Shown: piece by piece, positions 1 through 9,458 of the stretch
Layout of the letters: every line of letters starts with the position of its first letter
Numbering within the stretch: position 1 is the stretch's first letter
Notes under the pieces: generated by a model
Seen by the model: only the letters and a program-made list of their open reading frames with translations
Told to the model about the DNA's origin: nothing
Databases searched by the model: none
Origin: a virus
DNA length: 10,830 bases
Direction: 5' to 3' (one strand)
UHGV virus genome: UHGV-2152145
Made by a program: the position numbers and the translations under genes

Positions 1-879
1 ATGAAAATACTGCCCGTTGTCTCCACCAAAGGTGGTGAAGGTAAATCAACACAATCCGCAAATCTTGCTGGTTTTCTGGCCGATGCAGGTATACGTACCC
101 TGCTGATTGACGGAGATCATGCTCAACCCACAGCCAGTAATATCTTTCCGCTGACATATGAAGCGCCAGCCGGCCTTTTTGAACTTCTTATGCGTACGGC
201 TGACCTCACTCATCCCGATAATATCATTTCCCGCACGGCTATCGATGGCCTTGATCTGATTGTCTCCAATGATCCTCATGAACAGTTAAAAACCGCGATG
301 CTTCACGCCCCGGACGGGCGTCTTCGCCTCCGGAATGTTCTGCAACATCCACTTTTCCTGAATAACTACGATGTCATTGTCGTTGATTCTCAGGGGGCGC
401 GCTCCGTCATGCTGGAGATGATAGTACTGTCGGCGACTGAGTCGGTTGTCGGGATGGTCAATCCGGTTCTTCCCGATGTTCGTGAATTTATTCGCGGTAC
501 TGTCAACGTCATGGAGAACCTGCTGCCCTACCGTGAACTTGGGATACCCCTGCCTAAAGTACGCACGCTGGTTAACTGCATGGACTATACCGCGCTGGCC
601 AGGAAGACGCTGGATGAGCTGGCCGGAATTATTCAGACCGGTCGTTACAGCAGACAGTTACCTGAAGGTGCCGTTTCCCTTCTTTCCACACAGATTTACG
701 ACCTGAATATTTACAAGCAGGGACATGCGGCTGGTCAACCCGTTCATCGTCTCGAAAAAGAATCCACACGTCGCAGTGATTCTGCGCTTGTCACGATGCA
801 CAGCCTGGCCTGTGAACTCTTTCCTGAGTGGAAACCGGCGTTTGACGGGCTGCTGGAAAACGGAGGAATTCGTCAGTGA
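1..879 (+). CDS. parA: ParA/Soj-family partition ATPase (deviant Walker A), complete 292 aa
   Basis: N-terminus MKILPVVSTKGGEGKSTQSANLAGFLADAGIRTLLIDGDH carries the KGGxxK[ST] deviant Walker A typical of ParA/MinD ATPases, with a hydrophobic DS (VVDSQG) Walker B-like segment further on. The ORF starts at window position 1 and stops with TGA at 877-879. Confidence 0.9.
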   Translation: MKILPVVSTKGGEGKSTQSANLAGFLADAGIRTLLIDGDHAQPTASNIFPLTYEAPAGLFELLMRTADLTHPDNIISRTAIDGLDLIVSNDPHEQLKTAMLHAPDGRLRLRNVLQHPLFLNNYDVIVVDSQGARSVMLEMIVLSATESVVGMVNPVLPDVREFIRGTVNVMENLLPYRELGIPLPKVRTLVNCMDYTALARKTLDELAGIIQTGRYSRQLPEGAVSLLSTQIYDLNIYKQGHAAGQPVHRLEKESTRRSDSALVTMHSLACELFPEWKPAFDGLLENGGIRQ

Positions 880-1008: not shown

Positions 1009-1503
1009 ATGAATAACAGCAGCAATACCACAAACCGTAATACGTCTTCACCCGTTGAGTCAGCCTGTCATGCGTTACTGGATTTTATTGCCCGGGAAGT
1101 CTTTGAGAATAAAGCATCGGAAGAGGATGTCAGGGAGCGTTGCAAAGTATTTACAGCGCTGCTTAACGAAGGATTTAAAGCCCTGCTTGATGAGTCAGGG
1201 CTGAATCTGTCGAATCTTCGTAAACAGTGTAAGGAACTGGAATCTCAGATAACCAGACTGGATTCTCAGTCCGACGCTATTTGTCGCAGAAGCGCTCAAA
1301 TTGAACGCTTCATTGGCCACCATTTACCTTTTTTTGATTTGAACAAAGTTTCTGGTACTGCCAGTCAGTCATGTGAACCAGCGCCTTCTCCGGCTCAGTC
1401 GGCTGTGTCCAGTAGTCAGCCCAGTAATCTGTCAGAGCAAGGGACATCTCTGCGGGGGTCATCTGCTCAACCGTTGCCGGGAGCCAGTGATGCTGATGAA
1501 TAA
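1009..1503 (+). CDS. Hypothetical protein, predicted coiled-coil core with Ser/Pro/Gln-rich low-complexity C-terminal tail
   Basis: ATG at 1009 is preceded by GAAGGA (995-1000) at 8-nt spacing; the ORF-track start at 910 has no RBS. The central region (LRKQCKELESQITRLDSQ) looks helical/coiled-coil. The last ~190 nt overlap the minus-strand ORF 1310..1783, so the 3' portion is uncertain. Confidence 0.5.
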   Translation: MNNSSNTTNRNTSSPVESACHALLDFIAREVFENKASEEDVRERCKVFTALLNEGFKALLDESGLNLSNLRKQCKELESQITRLDSQSDAICRRSAQIERFIGHHLPFFDLNKVSGTASQSCEPAPSPAQSAVSSSQPSNLSEQGTSLRGSSAQPLPGASDADE

Positions 1504-1783
1504 GAGCAAACTTAACGGCTTGTTGAATGCTGATACTGTTATCGTCCAGAAAAAACCAGCGACGGCTGTTAATCAGCCAGTGTCCGAGCCAGCAAAGTCG
1601 GTAAGCGAGCTTCTGGTCAGCCCCGGGAAAGATTTCAGTTCCCTGGTCAAAGAAGGTTTTACAACGTTCCACATCGTCGGTGCTCATGCCTCCGGCTTTC
1701 CAGTTTTCATAATATTTTGCCATGTTGCCATCCTCATCATGGTTGTTATCAATGCCGGACGGCAGTTGTTTTTCTGTATTCAT
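1310..1783 (-). CDS. Possible divergent minus-strand ORF (157 aa) initiating inside repeat copy 1; uncertain
   Basis: The minus-strand ATG (complement of 1781-1783) is preceded by AAGGAG at ~7-nt spacing. The first 11 codons (MNTEKQLPSGI) are identical to those of minus ORF 2669..3064 because they lie within the repeat. The product is Trp/Tyr-rich and protein-like, but it overlaps the 3' end of + CDS 1009..1503, and antisense ORFs of this size are common in this window. Confidence 0.3.
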   Translation of the reverse strand: MNTEKQLPSGIDNNHDEDGNMAKYYENWKAGGMSTDDVERCKTFFDQGTEIFPGADQKLAYRLCWLGHWLINSRRWFFLDDNSISIQQAVKFALIHQHHWLPATVEQMTPAEMSLALTDYWADYWTQPTEPEKALVHMTDWQYQKLCSNQKKVNGGQ

Positions 1784-1956
1784 AAAAATTCTCCTTTAAA
1801 ACAATCTGTTATGAGTATGCGAATGCTGTCCGTACCTTCTGACCGGGGTCGGCAAACTTACCGGTCTGAAAACGTACAGGCAGTTATGGGCATTTTATGC
1901 CCTGCAACTGTTCGTCCGGCGCCCTTTTTCCTTTTTTTACACAGCCAGGTTTCCGG
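1751..1956. repeat. Copy 1 of a ~206-bp direct repeat (leader/regulatory element), upstream of CDS 2011..2913
   Basis: Aligned by eye to 3032..3237 at a constant offset of 1281 bp with no indels and roughly 16 mismatches. The central block (~1826..1920) differs at only 2 positions. Contains the palindrome GGGCATTTTATGCCC (1888..1902) and the imperfect inverted repeat TCTGACCGG-N14-CCGGTCTGA (1838..1869). Confidence 0.9.
1888..1902. promoter_or_regulatory. Perfect 15-bp palindrome GGGCATTTTATGCCC inside repeat copy 1 (identical site at 3169..3183); candidate operator or RNA hairpin
   Basis: 6-bp arms GGGCAT/ATGCCC around a TTT centre, conserved exactly in both repeat copies, followed about 20 nt later by a T-rich tract (CCCTTTTTCCTTTTTTT). 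No canonical sigma70 -35/-10 pair could be assigned confidently by eye. Confidence 0.35.
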
Positions 1957-2010
1957 TTATCTGCGGGGAAGTGACGCACCTGGCGGGCAGAGAGATATGG
2001 AGGTGAAAGT

Positions 2011-2913
2011 ATGTCTTCCTCAGTGAAATATTCTCCGGTTCCGGCGGTGTTAACCCGCCCTGAATTGCTGGCTGAACTGAACCTGCTGATGACCCGGATT
2101 GCCAGTGGGTGTCGTGTGGGGGTTCCGGCGTCATGTCGTCCGGTCATTGCGGTGCACGGTGGTTATGTTTCATACAGTTCTCCACGCGCCGGACGTGTTT
2201 TTCAGGACGGTTCCCGCCCGGAGATAGTGATGGCCGTCAGTAACCGGGAACGGATGTGCGAATGGTTCAGTCAGGTCTGGCTTCCGCTGCATCTGGCTGC
2301 CCTTGAAGGCGATGAGAGTGCTTTTTTCAGTGCGGAGGTCAACATGGTGCGCCGCGAGCTGCAGCGCGTTCCGGGGAATTCAATGAACTGCATGTGCTGG
2401 GCAAGCCTTGCTGCACTGGCATTTGATGCTGAAGAGCGGGTGGAACGGCAGAAAGGCAATAATGAGAACATCGCAACATATGATGAGAGCATCGCAACAT
2501 ATGCATTCCGTGCTGCCTGTACTGTGAGTCTCTGTCTGAGCCGGAATGTTTCCGGAGGTATTCCGCGCTCATACCCTGAATGGAAAGCGATTTTATTTCC
2601 CCGTGATGGTGCTGACATTTTCCCCGACGGGTGGCTGGAAAATATGACCCGTCGGGCTGAACGTGTCTTTACGAGTGCGAAACGTCAGTGTGGAATGCTC
2701 TCAGCCAGTCAGGCAGCGCTTTTTTCTCAACAAACACGTCAGTGTGCCAGTGAGCAATGCTCCGGCCGTATTCAGGCCGGCAGTCATCATTCAGGGAGCC
2801 ACCCTGACGTTTCAGCTTATGAAGTACGCTGTGCACAAGAAATGTCGCTTTCACCGGTCCATTCGACCCGACAGTGTTCAGTTCAATCCACTGATTCTGC
2901 TGAAACGGAGTGA
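2011..2913 (+). CDS. Hypothetical protein (300 aa), no recognisable domain; flanked on both sides by the 206-bp repeat
   Basis: ATG 2011 is preceded by GGAGGTG (1999-2005) at 5-6 nt spacing, directly downstream of repeat copy 1. Contains an in-frame 21-bp tandem duplication (2464..2505) and a Cys/Ser/Gln-rich C-terminal ~80 aa that looks low-complexity. The 3' end overlaps minus ORF 2669..3064. Confidence 0.5.
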   Translation: MSSSVKYSPVPAVLTRPELLAELNLLMTRIASGCRVGVPASCRPVIAVHGGYVSYSSPRAGRVFQDGSRPEIVMAVSNRERMCEWFSQVWLPLHLAALEGDESAFFSAEVNMVRRELQRVPGNSMNCMCWASLAALAFDAEERVERQKGNNENIATYDESIATYAFRAACTVSLCLSRNVSGGIPRSYPEWKAILFPRDGADIFPDGWLENMTRRAERVFTSAKRQCGMLSASQAALFSQQTRQCASEQCSGRIQAGSHHSGSHPDVSAYEVRCAQEMSLSPVHSTRQCSVQSTDSAETE

Positions 2914-3064
2914 AAGGATGAGCCGATTCAATACAGTTCGGGGGGAAGGGGTTACAGAGCCCGTCTTTTTCCGTCATGACCTTTCCGTTACTCAGCAGCC
3001 AGAACTGCTGGGTGTATTTCACTTCAGATCCAATGCCGGACGGCAGTTGTTTTTCTGTATTCAT
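2669..3064 (-). CDS. Possible divergent minus-strand ORF (131 aa) initiating inside repeat copy 2; uncertain
   Basis: The minus-strand ATG at 3062-3064 is preceded by AAAGGA. It shares only the first 11 residues with ORF 1310..1783 and then diverges completely. It overlaps the 3' low-complexity tail of + CDS 2011..2913. Confidence 0.25.
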   Translation of the reverse strand: MNTEKQLPSGIGSEVKYTQQFWLLSNGKVMTEKDGLCNPFPPNCIESAHPFTPFQQNQWIELNTVGSNGPVKATFLVHSVLHKLKRQGGSLNDDCRPEYGRSIAHWHTDVFVEKKALPDWLRAFHTDVSHS

Positions 3065-3237
3065 AAAGTTTTTCCTTTAAATCAGATTGTTATGAATGAG
3101 CGAATGCTGTCCGTACCTTCAGACCGGGGGCGGCAAACTTACCGGTCTGAAAACGTACAGGCAGTTATGGGCATTTTATGCCCTGCAACTGTTCGTCCGG
3201 CACCCTTTTTCCTTTTTTCACATAGCCGGGTTTCCGG
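3032..3237. repeat. Copy 2 of the ~206-bp direct repeat, immediately upstream of dnaB
   Basis: Same element as 1751..1956. Contains GGGCATTTTATGCCC (3169..3183) and the perfect 9-bp inverted repeat TCAGACCGG-N14-CCGGTCTGA (3119..3150). The dnaB RBS GGGAGG and ATG 3261 follow about 20 bp after the repeat ends. Confidence 0.9.
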
Positions 3238-3260
3238 CAGTCAGAGAGGGAGGATACACC

Positions 3261-4649
3261 ATGGCTGAACGCTATATTCCGCGCTCCGTTGATGCTGAAC
3301 AGGCTGTGCTTGGCGGCCTGATGCTTGATAATGATCGCTGGGATGAAGTGGTGCTGATGCTCAGGAGGGAGGATTTTTCTCTGGCTGTGCACAGGGTGAT
3401 ATTCCGCTCTATGTCAGAGCTGGCAGTCAGCGGTCAGCCGTTCGACCTCATCACGCTGAGTGAGCATATTGAGAAAACGCACAATATTGAGGCACTCGGC
3501 GGCTTCGCTTACCTGGCTGAGCTCAGTAAGAATACACCTTCAGCAGCCAATATCATGGCTTATGTCCGTATTGTGGCGGAAAAGAGTATGCTGCGGCAGC
3601 TTCAGGAAACCGGTAATTCTCTGGTTGCTGATGTTGCATCGCCGGATGCCACTCCGCGCGCAGTTCTTGAATCCGCGGAACGGCGACTTTTTTCTCTTTC
3701 CCAGACAGGCATGCTGCATGAGCGCAGTGAAGTGAGCCTTTCCTCCGCAATGGAGCTGGCCCTGCGTCAGCTGGAAGAAGGACTGAGGGCGGGCGGGATG
3801 ACGGGCACCCCAACGGGGTTTGATGAACTGGATGAGATGACCTGTGGCCTGCAGCCCGGGGATCTTATCCTTCTGGCAGCACGTCCGTCGATGGGGAAAA
3901 CGGCCCTTGGGCTCACTCTGTGTCTTAATGCCCTGCGTGAGCGGACCGATGAAACGGTATTCCTGTTCAGCATAGAAATGTCCAGGGAGCAACTGATTCT
4001 GCGTACCCTGTCGATGCTGTCCCGGGTGGAGCTGACTCGTCTTCGCAGCAGCATGATGGACGATGAGGAGTGGGCGAGACTTACGGCAACAATGGGTGAG
4101 TTCATGCAGGAGGGGACATCTGTCGGTGAAGGTAACCGCCTGATCATTGATGACTCGTCATTTCAGACTCCGTCATCACTGCGCGCCAGTGCCCGTCGTT
4201 ATGTGCGTCTGTATGGCAGACCTTCCCTGATAATGGTCGATTATCTCCAGTTGATTCGTTCACCGGACCAGGAAAACCGCACTCAGGAGATTGCGGAAAT
4301 ATCCCGCGCCCTCAAGTCGCTGGGGAAAGAACTTGGATGCCCTGTGCTCGCACTGTCGCAGCTTAACCGACAGGTGGAACAGCGGGCAGATAAACGACCA
4401 AACAACGGTGACCTGCGTGATTCCGGGGCGCTGGAGCAGGATGCTGACCTCATTATGTTTATTTACCGTGACGAGGTTTACAACCCCGGCACTCTGGATA
4501 AGGGCGTGGCGGAAATCATTGTGAGCAAACAGCGACAGGGACCGACCGGTACGATACGGGTGAGCTTCGATGGTCGTTACACCCTGTTTTCACCGTTTGA
4601 ACGTGGCTGGAATTTTGACCGTTCCGGAGGCAATGCGTATGTCAATTAA
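3261..4649 (+). CDS. dnaB: DnaB-family replicative DNA helicase (463 aa)
   Basis: N-terminus MAERYIPRSVDAEQAVLGGLMLDN is a typical DnaB N-terminal domain start. Walker A ARPSMGKTALGL, Walker B-like LIMVDYLQL, and SQLNR plus DLRDSGALEQDADLIMFIYRDEVY match the RecA-like DnaB C-terminal domain. The start is set at ATG 3261 with GGGAGG at 3248-3253; the ORF-track start at 3096 lies inside the repeat and lacks an RBS. Confidence 0.9.
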   Translation: MAERYIPRSVDAEQAVLGGLMLDNDRWDEVVLMLRREDFSLAVHRVIFRSMSELAVSGQPFDLITLSEHIEKTHNIEALGGFAYLAELSKNTPSAANIMAYVRIVAEKSMLRQLQETGNSLVADVASPDATPRAVLESAERRLFSLSQTGMLHERSEVSLSSAMELALRQLEEGLRAGGMTGTPTGFDELDEMTCGLQPGDLILLAARPSMGKTALGLTLCLNALRERTDETVFLFSIEMSREQLILRTLSMLSRVELTRLRSSMMDDEEWARLTATMGEFMQEGTSVGEGNRLIIDDSSFQTPSSLRASARRYVRLYGRPSLIMVDYLQLIRSPDQENRTQEIAEISRALKSLGKELGCPVLALSQLNRQVEQRADKRPNNGDLRDSGALEQDADLIMFIYRDEVYNPGTLDKGVAEIIVSKQRQGPTGTIRVSFDGRYTLFSPFERGWNFDRSGGNAYVN

Positions 4650-6985: not shown

Positions 6986-7560
6986 GTAACAACTTGTCAC
7001 AGGCCACCAACGGGCTGTTGATGCAACTGGTGATGGATCTCAAGAGTGGCTATCTGCGGCGATGTGAAGCACTGGGGCTTTCCCGGGAAGAAATGCAGAT
7101 GCTGCAGGGGCTGAGCATTGAAGAAATTCACTATCTGTCAAATTCAGAAGTGTCGGTGCTGCGGCTGGATATTAACCACAACAATCTTGTGCGCATGTTG
7201 CAGCAGGCGCGGACTGAACAGAAACGTCTGCAGCGAATCGATCGCGCTCTGGCGCTGGGGGGCTCTATCGAACTCATGGCGTTTTATTTTGGTCTTTCCA
7301 GCGTGGATGTGGCTGCGCGGCGTCGTATCTCCGGTATTGATGTTCGTCCCGGAAGGGGGATCACCCTGAGTGACGATGAGAATTCTGAACTCTGGCGGTT
7401 GTGGCAGAAAGCCGGGATCAATGATGTGGAGAGTGTGGACGGGCTGGATGTCATGATGCTTTGTGCTGAACAGATGAACATTCCACTGACGGCCATCTGG
7501 CATGCCGTCAGAGGGTGGCATACAACCGGAAATCCGGATCAGGTAAGGAGCGCGTCATGA
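6982..7560 (+). CDS. Hypothetical protein (192 aa), part of the coupled operon
   Basis: ATG 6982 overlaps the upstream stop (ATGA) and is preceded by GGAGGTGAGG. Composition is protein-like with no motif I can name with confidence. Confidence 0.6.
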   Translation: MSNNLSQATNGLLMQLVMDLKSGYLRRCEALGLSREEMQMLQGLSIEEIHYLSNSEVSVLRLDINHNNLVRMLQQARTEQKRLQRIDRALALGGSIELMAFYFGLSSVDVAARRRISGIDVRPGRGITLSDDENSELWRLWQKAGINDVESVDGLDVMMLCAEQMNIPLTAIWHAVRGWHTTGNPDQVRSAS

Positions 7561-7814: not shown

Positions 7815-8072
7815 ATGAGTAATGCAGCAAGACTCCAGCTGGGTTTTTCTCCGTTTTCAAAAACTATCGTGCTGGCAAAAATGCGTAATCTTGACGACGG
7901 AACCAGTCTTCGTGTCGGTAATGATCCCGGCCGCGATGTAACCAATGAGGCGGCTCAGCTTGTCTGGCATCTGGTCATGGCAGAAGGTGGTGAAATTATG
8001 TGGGAAATGGACGATGGCTCCCGCATGGTGCTGAAGGCTGAAAGTCAGGAGGCAACCAGTGAGCAAGATTAA
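7815..8072 (+). CDS. Small acidic hypothetical protein (85 aa)
   Basis: ATG 7815 is preceded by GAGGTGG (7803-7809). No HTH or other recognisable motif. The 3' end overlaps the next gene start by 14 nt. Confidence 0.5.
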   Translation: MSNAARLQLGFSPFSKTIVLAKMRNLDDGTSLRVGNDPGRDVTNEAAQLVWHLVMAEGGEIMWEMDDGSRMVLKAESQEATSEQD

Positions 8073-8727
8073 CTACCAGGCACTGCGTGAGGCGGCAGAG
8101 CAGGCAATGCATGACGACTGGGGATTTGACACGGATCTTTTCCATGAGCTGGTAACACCATCGATTGTGCAGGCACTGCTGGATGAACGGGAAGCCAAAA
8201 GCAAACTCCTGGCCGAACTGGACGCTAATTTATCCGAACTGGAGGCTGTTTTATCGGCGATGGGCGAAGAGCTCCAGAAAGCGACTGAGTCAATTGAGCG
8301 GGCTGATGCGGCTGCTACGTTGGCACACGAGACGTTTTCGGCGCTGGCGGCGGAGAATGCGATACTGAAGACAGCACTTCCTCAACCATTCGGACCTGAA
8401 ATGATGAAGGCTCTTGATGCGTATGAGAAGCACCAGGATGAAGTACCAGAGGCAGGAATGCTCAATGCATTTTTCATCTTACGCGACAGCATCTGTGTTG
8501 AAACCCCAGCCACCGATGCTTTCCTGGCTGAAGTACGGGCGCAGGGGGGGGATGCTGCTATAGAAGCTGCAAAAAATCTGGTGGCTCAGGAATATGAGTA
8601 TAAGGATTTCAAAGCGGCGCAGAGTGATTGCTGTATGTTTCCTGGTTCAGACTTGGTAGGGAAGGTTGAAATGACCGAGTGGTTAGTTGACTTTGCCGCA
8701 GAGCTTCGCAAAGGAGGCAACCAGTGA
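8059..8727 (+). CDS. Hypothetical coiled-coil protein (222 aa); shares its RBS and first ~12 codons with the next gene
   Basis: GTG 8059 is preceded by AGGAGG (8047-8052). The N-terminus MSKINYQALREAAEQA is near-identical to the start of 8724..9458; from memory this resembles ead/Ea22-like prophage proteins. The central region is helical/coiled-coil in character. Confidence 0.6.
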   Translation: MSKINYQALREAAEQAMHDDWGFDTDLFHELVTPSIVQALLDEREAKSKLLAELDANLSELEAVLSAMGEELQKATESIERADAAATLAHETFSALAAENAILKTALPQPFGPEMMKALDAYEKHQDEVPEAGMLNAFFILRDSICVETPATDAFLAEVRAQGGDAAIEAAKNLVAQEYEYKDFKAAQSDCCMFPGSDLVGKVEMTEWLVDFAAELRKGGNQ

Positions 8728-9458
8728 ACAAGATTGACTATCAGGCACTGCGTAAGGCAGCACAAAACTATCAGTCGACGCTGGCGTGGTATCAGTCCAT
8801 CCCGGACAGCCCAAATGCTGAACGGGATTGTGATGCGGCTCTGGCTGCGTTTAAGCATCACATCCGTCATCGGGAAGTGGATATTATCTCCGGGCTGTTG
8901 GATGAGCTGGACGAAAAACAGCAATACATTAAATCCCGCGACCAGGAGAATGAGGATATTGCTCTTACGGTTGGGAAGCTGAGAGTTGAGCTTGAGGAAG
9001 TAAAACAACACGCTGAAGAATTATCCGAAACCAACGCTGTTCGTAACCAATGGCGGCCAGATATTTGCCCAATAACCGGACGTGCATTTTTCATGTGGAT
9101 TGAGCATCCGACATTGGGAAATGTGCCGACGTATGGTGGCCCATTAGACAGTTACACCATTCCAACAAAGGACGGTGACGGTGAGTTTTCATGTGAGCGT
9201 TACGATCATGATTTCGGCGGTTGGGTAGAAAGCGAATGTCCTGGGTTATATCTGATTGATGATAAAGAACAATGCAGAGTCTACGAACTGGAGGAACGAG
9301 TTAAGGAACTGGATGCTCGGGAAATATCGCTCCCGGAACGTAGCAGTATGCTTCATCGAACAGATTTTAACGAGGCTTACCACACGGTAATGGCATACAA
9401 AGTTTCTGAAGTCATCGCTGCAATCCGCGTCGCTGGCATTCGCATCAAAGGAGAGTGA
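8724..9458 (+). CDS. Hypothetical protein (244 aa), mosaic: head shared with 8059..8727, tail shared with 10391..10606
   Basis: GTG 8724 is preceded by AAGGAGG (8711-8717). N-terminus MNKIDYQALRKAA; C-terminus ...AAIRVAGIRIKGE matches the C-terminus ...CTAAGIRIKGEQVK of 10391..10606. Overlaps the upstream stop by 4 nt. Confidence 0.6.
   Translation: MNKIDYQALRKAAQNYQSTLAWYQSIPDSPNAERDCDAALAAFKHHIRHREVDIISGLLDELDEKQQYIKSRDQENEDIALTVGKLRVELEEVKQHAEELSETNAVRNQWRPDICPITGRAFFMWIEHPTLGNVPTYGGPLDSYTIPTKDGDGEFSCERYDHDFGGWVESECPGLYLIDDKEQCRVYELEERVKELDAREISLPERSSMLHRTDFNEAYHTVMAYKVSEVIAAIRVAGIRIKGE

Follow-up and report, generated by a model that had tools for sequence, protein, structure and literature searches.

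The 10,830-nucleotide (nt) stretch of UHGV virus genome UHGV-2152145 that was analysed here, referred to as the window, contains two open reading frames (ORFs) on its minus strand, ORF1(-) of 157 amino acids (aa; 1310..1783) and ORF2(-) of 131 aa (2669..3064), which begin with the same eleven residues, MNTEKQLPSGI, and then diverge. This raises the question whether the two ORFs are genes and, if so, why they start alike. We find that both are real genes, and that the sharing of eleven codons stems from their junction to copies of one folded module of about 176 nt. Judged from its gene row, the window is the parA-dnaB-parB end of an integrative conjugative element of the SPI-7 type. The explanation that we consider probable as a whole is that a unit of three parts, namely an antisense gene, the folded element and a plus-strand frame that stays open across both (the relay frame), was duplicated and recombined in one clade of such islands, and that the open frame may be translated. 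An earlier note on this DNA had proposed, among other options, a bidirectional cassette in which a shared 5' segment was recombined onto different gene bodies. That proposal is essentially right; the fold, the location of the eleven codons in its stems and the open third frame had been missed.

A gene start carried on a repeat

The two start codons lie in the 222-nt copies of a direct repeat (family D1; 1750-1971 and 3031-3252), which are 90% identical. On the minus strand the ATG of ORF1(-) is found at 1781-1783 and that of ORF2(-) at 3062-3064, and the repeat alignment and the ORF translations agree that both frames begin inside the repeat with the common codons. Codon 11 ends at 1751 and 3032, respectively, and the left edge of the repeat (1750 and 3031) is the first base of codon 12, which places the boundary reported at codon 11 one base past it. 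Each copy supplies a ribosome-binding site (RBS) and an ATG, as had been noted, but the sites are similar rather than identical (AAGGAG in copy 1, AAGGAA in copy 2). The downstream bodies are indeed unrelated: in a profile-profile comparison of the two proteins the alignment is limited to the first 14 columns. The predicted fold of ORF1(-) is all-helical and that of ORF2(-) beta-rich.

The module of RBS, ATG and the MNT..QLPSGI start was found in 139 of 5426 complete Escherichia coli genomes, and also in islands of Proteus, Buttiauxella, Edwardsiella, Pantoea, Serratia and Salmonella. This recurrence across genomes and genera puts the shared start far beyond chance.

Coding strand of the two ORFs

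ORF1(-) is a diverged paralog (about 30% identity) within a protein family denoted orfX. Its full-length homologs, with identities as low as about 50%, also cover the C-terminus, where it overlaps the tail of the upstream plus-strand gene, and a profile search retrieved 27 orfX members from E. coli, Salmonella, Proteus, Buttiauxella, Serratia and Pantoea. The members share an RLxWLGxWL motif, of which R62, L63, W65, L66, G67 and W69 are invariant in the alignments (A6, A8 and A9), and a nearly invariant MNT..S.I start. With tblastn, ORF1(-) is tied to the orfX proteins of Proteus, Buttiauxella and E. coli, with E-values of 3e-6 to 7e-7 for the first two. It also displays the full set of family traits: a length of 140-165 aa, the MNT..QLPSGID start, the RLxWLGxWL and MT..E(M/I)..AL motifs, an antisense position between parA and dnaB-PI, and a start within the repeated element. 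Translation from the conserved ATG of every repeat copy identifies an orfX gene of 141-165 aa as the normal partner of the element.

The substitutions between orfX orthologs number 74, 47 and 32 at minus-strand codon positions 3, 1 and 2. The upstream gene plus164 (1009..1503) behaves differently along its length in a comparison of the window with the related E. coli locus L002. Between 1009 and 1309 the substitutions at plus-strand positions 1, 2 and 3 number 36, 24 and 53, a pattern of plus-strand coding, whereas over 1310-1503 they number 9, 22 and 7, which read as minus-strand positions 3, 1 and 2 gives 22, 9 and 7. As the changes peak at plus position 2, which is minus position 3, they follow the minus phase. 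The coding strand thus switches at about 1310, and the tail of plus164 (1310-1503), a read-through over the 3' end of ORF1(-), lies outside coding selection.

ORF2(-) has no orfX motif past the prefix and represents a second family, orfY. A word-indexed protein search with this sequence reached no further than near relatives in E. coli, including frameshifted ones. An exhaustive search added two diverged homologs: P0034 (119 aa, 55% identity), which starts MNTNEQLPPGID, and P0035 (134 aa, 38% identity), which is without the prefix. On both contigs the element lies directly upstream on the opposite strand, with scores of 78.8 and 42.4 bits. Conserved blocks of orfY, such as HPF.P, WIE.D, EYG and WHTDV.V, span the overlap with the plus-strand tail. 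Substitutions at minus positions 3, 1 and 2 number 60, 42 and 30 between the window and the metagenomic contig L091, and 87, 53 and 42 between the window and the more diverged metagenomic relative L092. In the overlap the minus-frame identity is 0.57 (L091) and 0.40 (L092), against 0.37 and 0.16 for the frame of the plus tail. Variation within E. coli alone (20 variable sites in 2669-2913, at 95-99.5% identity) hints against plus-strand coding but the divergence is too small; it is the metagenomic homologs that settle this region as minus coding.

The corresponding plus-strand gene, plus300 (2011..2913, 300 aa), is conserved up to about 2711. Its relatives end some 20-25 residues past a RAER(V/I)FTSA motif and then lead straight into dnaB. 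In E. coli EC554 (L090) a homolog of 241 aa directly overlaps dnaB, and it resembles the window only as far as 2711. In Pluralibacter the homolog lies in an ORF of 244 codons and ends about 22 residues past RAERIFTSA, with tblastn matches to window residues 1-232 from locus position 7324. These shorter relatives imply that 2712-2913 is read-through into a segment that they do not have. As far as the alignments indicate, both plus-strand tails are accidental, an upstream gene running on in each case into sequence antisense to a minus gene, and comparison with the homologs shows both minus genes to be under protein-level selection.

The earlier note had left the coding strand in 1310..1503 and 2669..2913 undecided; in both regions the substitutions follow the minus codon phase. 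It had associated spurious minus ORFs with a lack of homologs and with conserved plus-strand tails, and the opposite was found: the minus products have diverged homologs and the plus tails are unconserved. Nor are the two other options that it raised, a short leader peptide and two chance ORFs, compatible with frames that run on for 131-165 codons into conserved proteins. In Pfam, NCBIfam, PHROGs and PADLOC nothing meaningful was retrieved for ORF1(-), ORF2(-), plus164 or plus300, and no family or fold match was found for orfX and orfY.

The structured element

The core of the repeat is an element of 176 nt (1750-1925 in copy 1 and 3031-3206 in copy 2) with covariance model scores of 200 and 198 bits. 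It has five helices and, as RNA, forms a closing stem P1 around three hairpins in both plus-strand copies. In copy 1, P1 pairs 1753-1769 with 1904-1921, P2 1777-1783 with 1811-1817, P3 1825-1835 with 1874-1884, P4 1837-1846 with 1861-1870, and P5 1889-1891 with 1899-1901; the helices of copy 2 are found by adding 1281. The z-scores for folding of the plus-strand RNA are -3.7 for copy 1 and -7.76 for copy 2. The shared eleven codons occupy the 5' arms of P1 and P2, and in P2 the complement of the minus-strand ATG pairs with a plus-strand ATG at 1811. P1 is followed by a C/T-rich tract (1922-1937 in copy 1, 3203-3218 in copy 2), which in copy 2 is predicted to pair with the RBS of dnaB.

Among 14 copies, 97.5% of the cells at paired positions are paired, and 12 pairs have changed on both sides, compared with 4.1 +/- 1.4 in shuffled alignments. 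For 20 distinct copies, drawn from nine genera or contigs, the paired share is 95.7%, and 23 of the 46 pairs have changed on both sides (7.0 +/- 1.8 in shuffles, 4-8 with slid partners). The plus strand is preferred: there are 94 G.T cells and 7 A.C cells, and the consensus folding energy is -52 kcal/mol for the plus strand versus -33 for the minus strand, the gap being largest in the most diverged copies. At the level of the aligned copies, the fold is shown to be conserved through compensatory changes, and better so on the plus strand.

The element had no match at E <= 1 in Rfam, searched with the whole window on both strands, and the repeat had none in a collection of 72,556 plasmids. In the 139 E. 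coli genomes it is confined to chromosomes, where it always lies directly 5' of dnaB-PI, with extra copies 5' of cargo genes; an island holds one to three copies. Of 80 loci collected by similarity to DnaB, with each species represented by one genome, only 3 yielded the element in iterated nhmmer searches combined with the covariance model, which makes it clade-specific. The islands of E. coli C5 and RM13745 (L002 and L005) hold three copies each, and in that of Serratia ureilytica (L094) two copies (2865-3034 and 3477-3646) flank orfX.

Helix P5 (1889-1901 and 3170-3182 in the window; copies a, b and c of L002) exists in two compensated versions, TGGGCA..TGCCCT and CCGGGA..TCCCGA. The copies within one island have the same version irrespective of their position, which suggests gene conversion between them. 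In L092, where the element (192-341) is without hairpin P2 and the orfY homolog occupies the region 338-742, that homolog is without the prefix: it starts at the equivalent of codon 12 and has its own RBS, made of P1 sequence. The prefix is also predicted to be disordered, as the predicted local distance difference test score (pLDDT) is below 50 for residues 1-19 of ORF1(-) and for residues 1-6 and 9-11 of orfY. With the prefix absent from one homolog and disordered in prediction, the peptide itself is seemingly not what is conserved; rather, the eleven codons appear to be constrained by base pairing.

A plus-strand frame almost without stops

Each minus gene has an exactly antisense plus-strand frame that stays open across the gene and the entire element. 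Frame L1 (1496..2026), the antisense frame of ORF1(-) extended through copy 1, is open from stop to stop over 1343-2026, and frame L2 (2918..3268), that of orfY extended through copy 2, over 2648-3268. Seven minus ORFs from separate lineages, with 968 codons in total, contain a single TTA, CTA or TCA codon. About 22 such stops would be expected from the same frame of ten other genes of the window (62 in 2712 codons), and 18.0 from the usage of Leu and Ser codons; multiplied together, the zero-stop probabilities give 10^-8.6. The sole codon of this kind in ORF1(-) is codon 148, upstream of the start of L1, and orfY has none in four lineages.

Both frames are closely joined to their neighbours. 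The ATG of L1 at 1496 overlaps the stop of plus164 (ATGAATAA, 1496-1503), and its TGA at 2024-2026 falls 16 nt past the plus300 ATG at 2011. The ATG of L2 at 2918 comes 4 nt after the stop of plus300 (TGA, 2911-2913; GGAGTGAAAGGATG), a stop-AAGG-ATG junction that is also present in L091, and its stop at 3266-3268 overlaps the ATG of dnaB at 3261 (ATGGCTGA, 3261-3268). In L088, L056, L087 and L002 the relay frame starts at the stop of parA in an ATGA, and in every lineage examined it ends at dnaB in an ATGnnTGA. Taking the two ends of the frame together, all lineages examined have junctions of the type ATGA or ATGnnTRA. Overlap or abutment of stop and start, as in translationally coupled genes, was found in 14 copies and in three loci fetched after the idea had been formed (Pantoea ananatis, Serratia ureilytica and Salmonella); these later loci have the same layout, codon avoidance and junctions. 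Overlaps of start and stop recur in at least nine lineages. In L092 the upstream plus-strand gene and the relay frame share one reading frame over some 273-279 codons, as far as the start of dnaB.

The translations of the relay frames are rich in Cys and Phe, look like antisense noise and have no homologs outside the clade. This pattern is read as the mark of selection for a translated bridge that stays open, and not for a protein. It is possible, although we stop short of calling it probable, that selection keeps the relay frame free of stops across the antisense-embedded genes and the folded RNA so that ribosomes reach dnaB-PI.

Formation of the unit and alternative explanations

In the present island clade, the interval between parA and dnaB-PI holds orfX on the opposite strand, the element of about 176 nt and a plus-strand frame running over both, with the element contributing the RBS, the ATG and about eleven codons of the antisense gene. 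Duplication and recombination of this unit have probably left copy 1 of the window joined to ORF1(-), the diverged orfX paralog, and copy 2 joined to orfY, a gene of an unrelated family, while base pairing in the element together with homogenising gene conversion between the copies would keep the eleven codons identical. Relay translation would carry ribosomes from the upstream cistron through antisense gene and fold to dnaB, and such continuous translation could provide translational coupling as well as protection from Rho polarity. The fold would act in the plus-sense mRNA. As this RNA is complementary to the translation start of the minus gene, the operon and the antisense gene would be expected to counteract each other's expression.

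Several observations run counter to this explanation. Inside the element, codon periodicity of the relay frame is close to nil, with 21 variable sites at position 1, 20 at position 2 and 27 at position 3, from which it follows that the relay peptide is not conserved, and translation of the frame by ribosomes is something that we infer. Between parA and plus164 the window has an untranslated gap of 130 nt, the chain of coupled ORFs being continuous only from plus164 onward. The antisense genes have decayed in some islands, by mutation of the ATG (L002 copy b, L003 copy a) or by a premature stop (L001), which marks them as dispensable, accessory genes. No sigma-70 promoter at a conserved position emerged on either strand, be it from consensus scanning or from position weights applied to seven copies. 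The paired percentage of the 20 distinct copies is inflated, as their alignment (A11) was fitted to the covariance model, and the fold could be one of single-stranded DNA instead of RNA, G.T pairs being tolerated in DNA too.

This last point leads to a role that we regard as unlikely, yet less so than the other alternatives, in which the element works as plus-strand DNA exposed in conjugative transfer or rolling-circle replication, either as a priming site (ssi/sso) or as an Frpo-like promoter. In the latter variant it would serve early expression of the minus genes that start within it, and the repeats would be copies of an early-expression cassette, comparable to Frpo before ssb, psiB and ardA. 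Such a role would suit the strand-specific folding, on the strand that would template the minus genes, the RBS and ATG of a small, variable minus gene in each copy, and the presence of one to three copies per island; the Frpo elements are likewise repeated upstream of leading-region genes (PMC11541004). The minus strand of copy 1 folded as DNA has a z-score of -3.86, the plus strand having been folded as RNA only. Against this role, no stem contains a -35/-10 pair, the consensus scan finding nothing in the element, and the longest hairpin arm, of about 25 nt, is too short for a promoter; a promoter of the Frpo type is therefore not supported. The lack of any match among the plasmids, the persistence of G.U intermediates at many pairs, which is typical of RNA, and the position of the element within a plus frame that is kept open, and hence in plus-sense mRNA whenever the operon is expressed, also disagree with it.

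The open plus-strand frames invite the converse view that L1, L2 and their relatives are the true coding genes and that the minus ORFs are shadows, left open by a scarcity of stops in the antisense frame. They have textbook operon junctions with parA and dnaB, and the NCBI pipeline calls the plus frame in L006 (5741..6253) and L002 (3749..4288). Nevertheless this view seems very improbable: the substitutions peak at minus position 3, which is plus position 1 and thus the wrong phase, the minus frame has the higher amino-acid identity (0.52 versus 0.37 and 0.55 versus 0.43), and the invariant Trp and Met codons of the minus frame fix third positions of plus-frame Pro and His codons that would otherwise be free. 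The Cys- and Phe-rich translations without relatives beyond the clade point the same way, as does the RBS of the minus ATG, which is kept in all lineages despite the divergence of the surrounding loop. We give still less credence to the idea that segmental duplication in which an intergenic promoter region was copied simply left the shared start behind, with a fold and an open frame that have no function of their own. The junction at 2711, which resembles illegitimate recombination and not a site-specific event, and the decay of several copies would be in line with it, but it is at odds with half of the base pairs showing compensatory changes across genera, with stop-codon avoidance at a probability near 10^-8 and with start/stop overlaps in at least nine lineages.

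Other candidates were rejected on more specific grounds. A retron would need a reverse transcriptase, which is missing; the products of 131-165 aa, which are not hydrophobic, do not fit a type I toxin-antitoxin system; and a leader-peptide attenuator does not agree with the length of the minus ORFs and their continuation into conserved proteins.

Genomic context

The assignment to the SPI-7 type is based on the gene row parA, dnaB-PI, parB, DUF2786, DUF2857 together with an adjoining tyrosine recombinase gene and a tRNA gene. In E. coli chromosome regions that are 97% identical to the window, these genes carry the labels 'SPI-7-type island replicative DNA helicase' (dnaB-PI), ParA, ParB, DUF2786 and DUF2857, and they lie beside an integrase and a tRNA gene. 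The row of partition and replication genes starts with parA on the plus strand (1..879), a ParA-family ATPase by its Pfam matches (AAA_31, CbiA, ParA) and by the annotation of its E. coli relatives. The gene dnaB-PI (3261..4649, plus strand), the replicative helicase of the island, matches Pfam DnaB and DnaB_C, in agreement with the RefSeq annotation of its relatives, and is the gene immediately 3' of the last element copy in every related island. The basic layout is parA, followed by orfX on the opposite strand, the element and dnaB-PI.

An in-frame ATG at 3096, within copy 2, would lengthen dnaB-PI by 55 residues (3096-3260); the RefSeq relatives start at the equivalent of 3261. Within plus300 a tandem duplication of 21 nt (2459-2500) gives rise to the sequence NENIATY/DESIATY. 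Where antisense genes have decayed, the remains differ: in L001 (3338-3434) codon 30 is followed by the premature stop, and the RefSeq protein there is a shortened one, whereas in L002 copy b (about 4045) and L003 copy a the start codon reads ATA, and L003 retains a remnant of 29 codons (3001-3075).

The window contains a second case of a common 5' end on different gene bodies. A direct repeat of 51 nt (8047-8097 and 8712-8762, 90% identical) comprises the RBS and about the first 13 codons of the consecutive plus-strand genes 8059-8727 and 8724-9458, which start with MSKINYQALREAAEQ and MNKIDYQALRKAAQN.

Significance

The locus holds a structured element that has not been described before, two embedded antisense gene families whose shared start appears to be constrained by that structure, and statistically strong evidence for a relay frame. 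This conserved element is an addition to a widespread family of enterobacterial islands and is situated at the entry to their replication and partition operon. The analysis also resolves a conflict in annotation: depending on the genome, the NCBI pipeline annotates either the minus gene or, as a hypothetical protein, the plus frame, and it extends two plus-strand genes with unconserved tails.

If the relay frame is indeed translated, it would be a clear natural example of an ORF that is selected for its translatability and not for its protein. The synonymous codon choice of one gene, which avoids TTA, CTA and TCA, would then be dictated by translation of the opposite strand, although the peptide made there is not conserved, and this would bear on the study of overlapping genes, translational coupling and Rho polarity. 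The relay together with a plus-strand fold that is complementary to the antisense start would make a compact two-state switch between the replication and partition genes on one side and the antisense genes on the other.

Comparison with known systems

Integron cassette arrays consist of variable genes separated by folded, strand-specific copies of attC, and in this respect resemble the window, where variable genes lie between copies of a folded, strand-specific repeat. Unlike in these arrays, the similarity breakpoint at 2711 is found inside plus300 and not at a folded site, the repeat carries a translation start, and the other strand would be translated as well. The sole annotated recombinase is of the tyrosine type, lies by a tRNA gene and is read as the island integrase, none being annotated as an integron integrase. 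An integron gene cassette was rejected for these reasons.

Embedded antisense overlapping genes have been reported in E. coli (bioRxiv 10.1101/2020.11.18.388249) and, as outlined there, they too are protein-coding ORFs that lie wholly within an ORF of the opposite strand. Compared with that outline, the window differs in that the embedded gene bears the protein-level selection while the containing frame is apparently only kept open, and in that the arrangement is conserved across genera with defined coupling junctions.

The Frpo/ssi single-strand promoters are described as repeated in the leading regions of plasmids (Masai and Arai 1997, as cited in PMC11541004). Like the element, they are strand-specific folds of a few hundred bases that are repeated in a conjugative element, each beside a small variable gene. 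The present element differs from them by the absence of a -35/-10 pair from its stem and of similarity to the plasmid collection, and by its position within a frame of opposite sense that may be translated.

A further parallel is offered by ICEclc, a member of the same broad island family, in which the gene shi of the parA-shi-parB operon shares 17 bp with parA and 8 bp with parB (PMC6812849). As in the window, a short ORF directly follows parA and overlaps its neighbours by a few bases. The junctions of the window have the form ATGA or ATGnnTGA, the latter giving the same 8-nt overlap as between shi and parB. Shi is a protein of 85 aa whose function has been tested, and no gene lies opposite it, whereas the relay frame has 117-300 codons and an unconserved peptide, holds a whole antisense gene and a fold of 176 nt, and has dnaB as its downstream partner. 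The junctions of the relay frame and the overlaps of shi, taken together, thus indicate that tight coupling is a trait of this island family.

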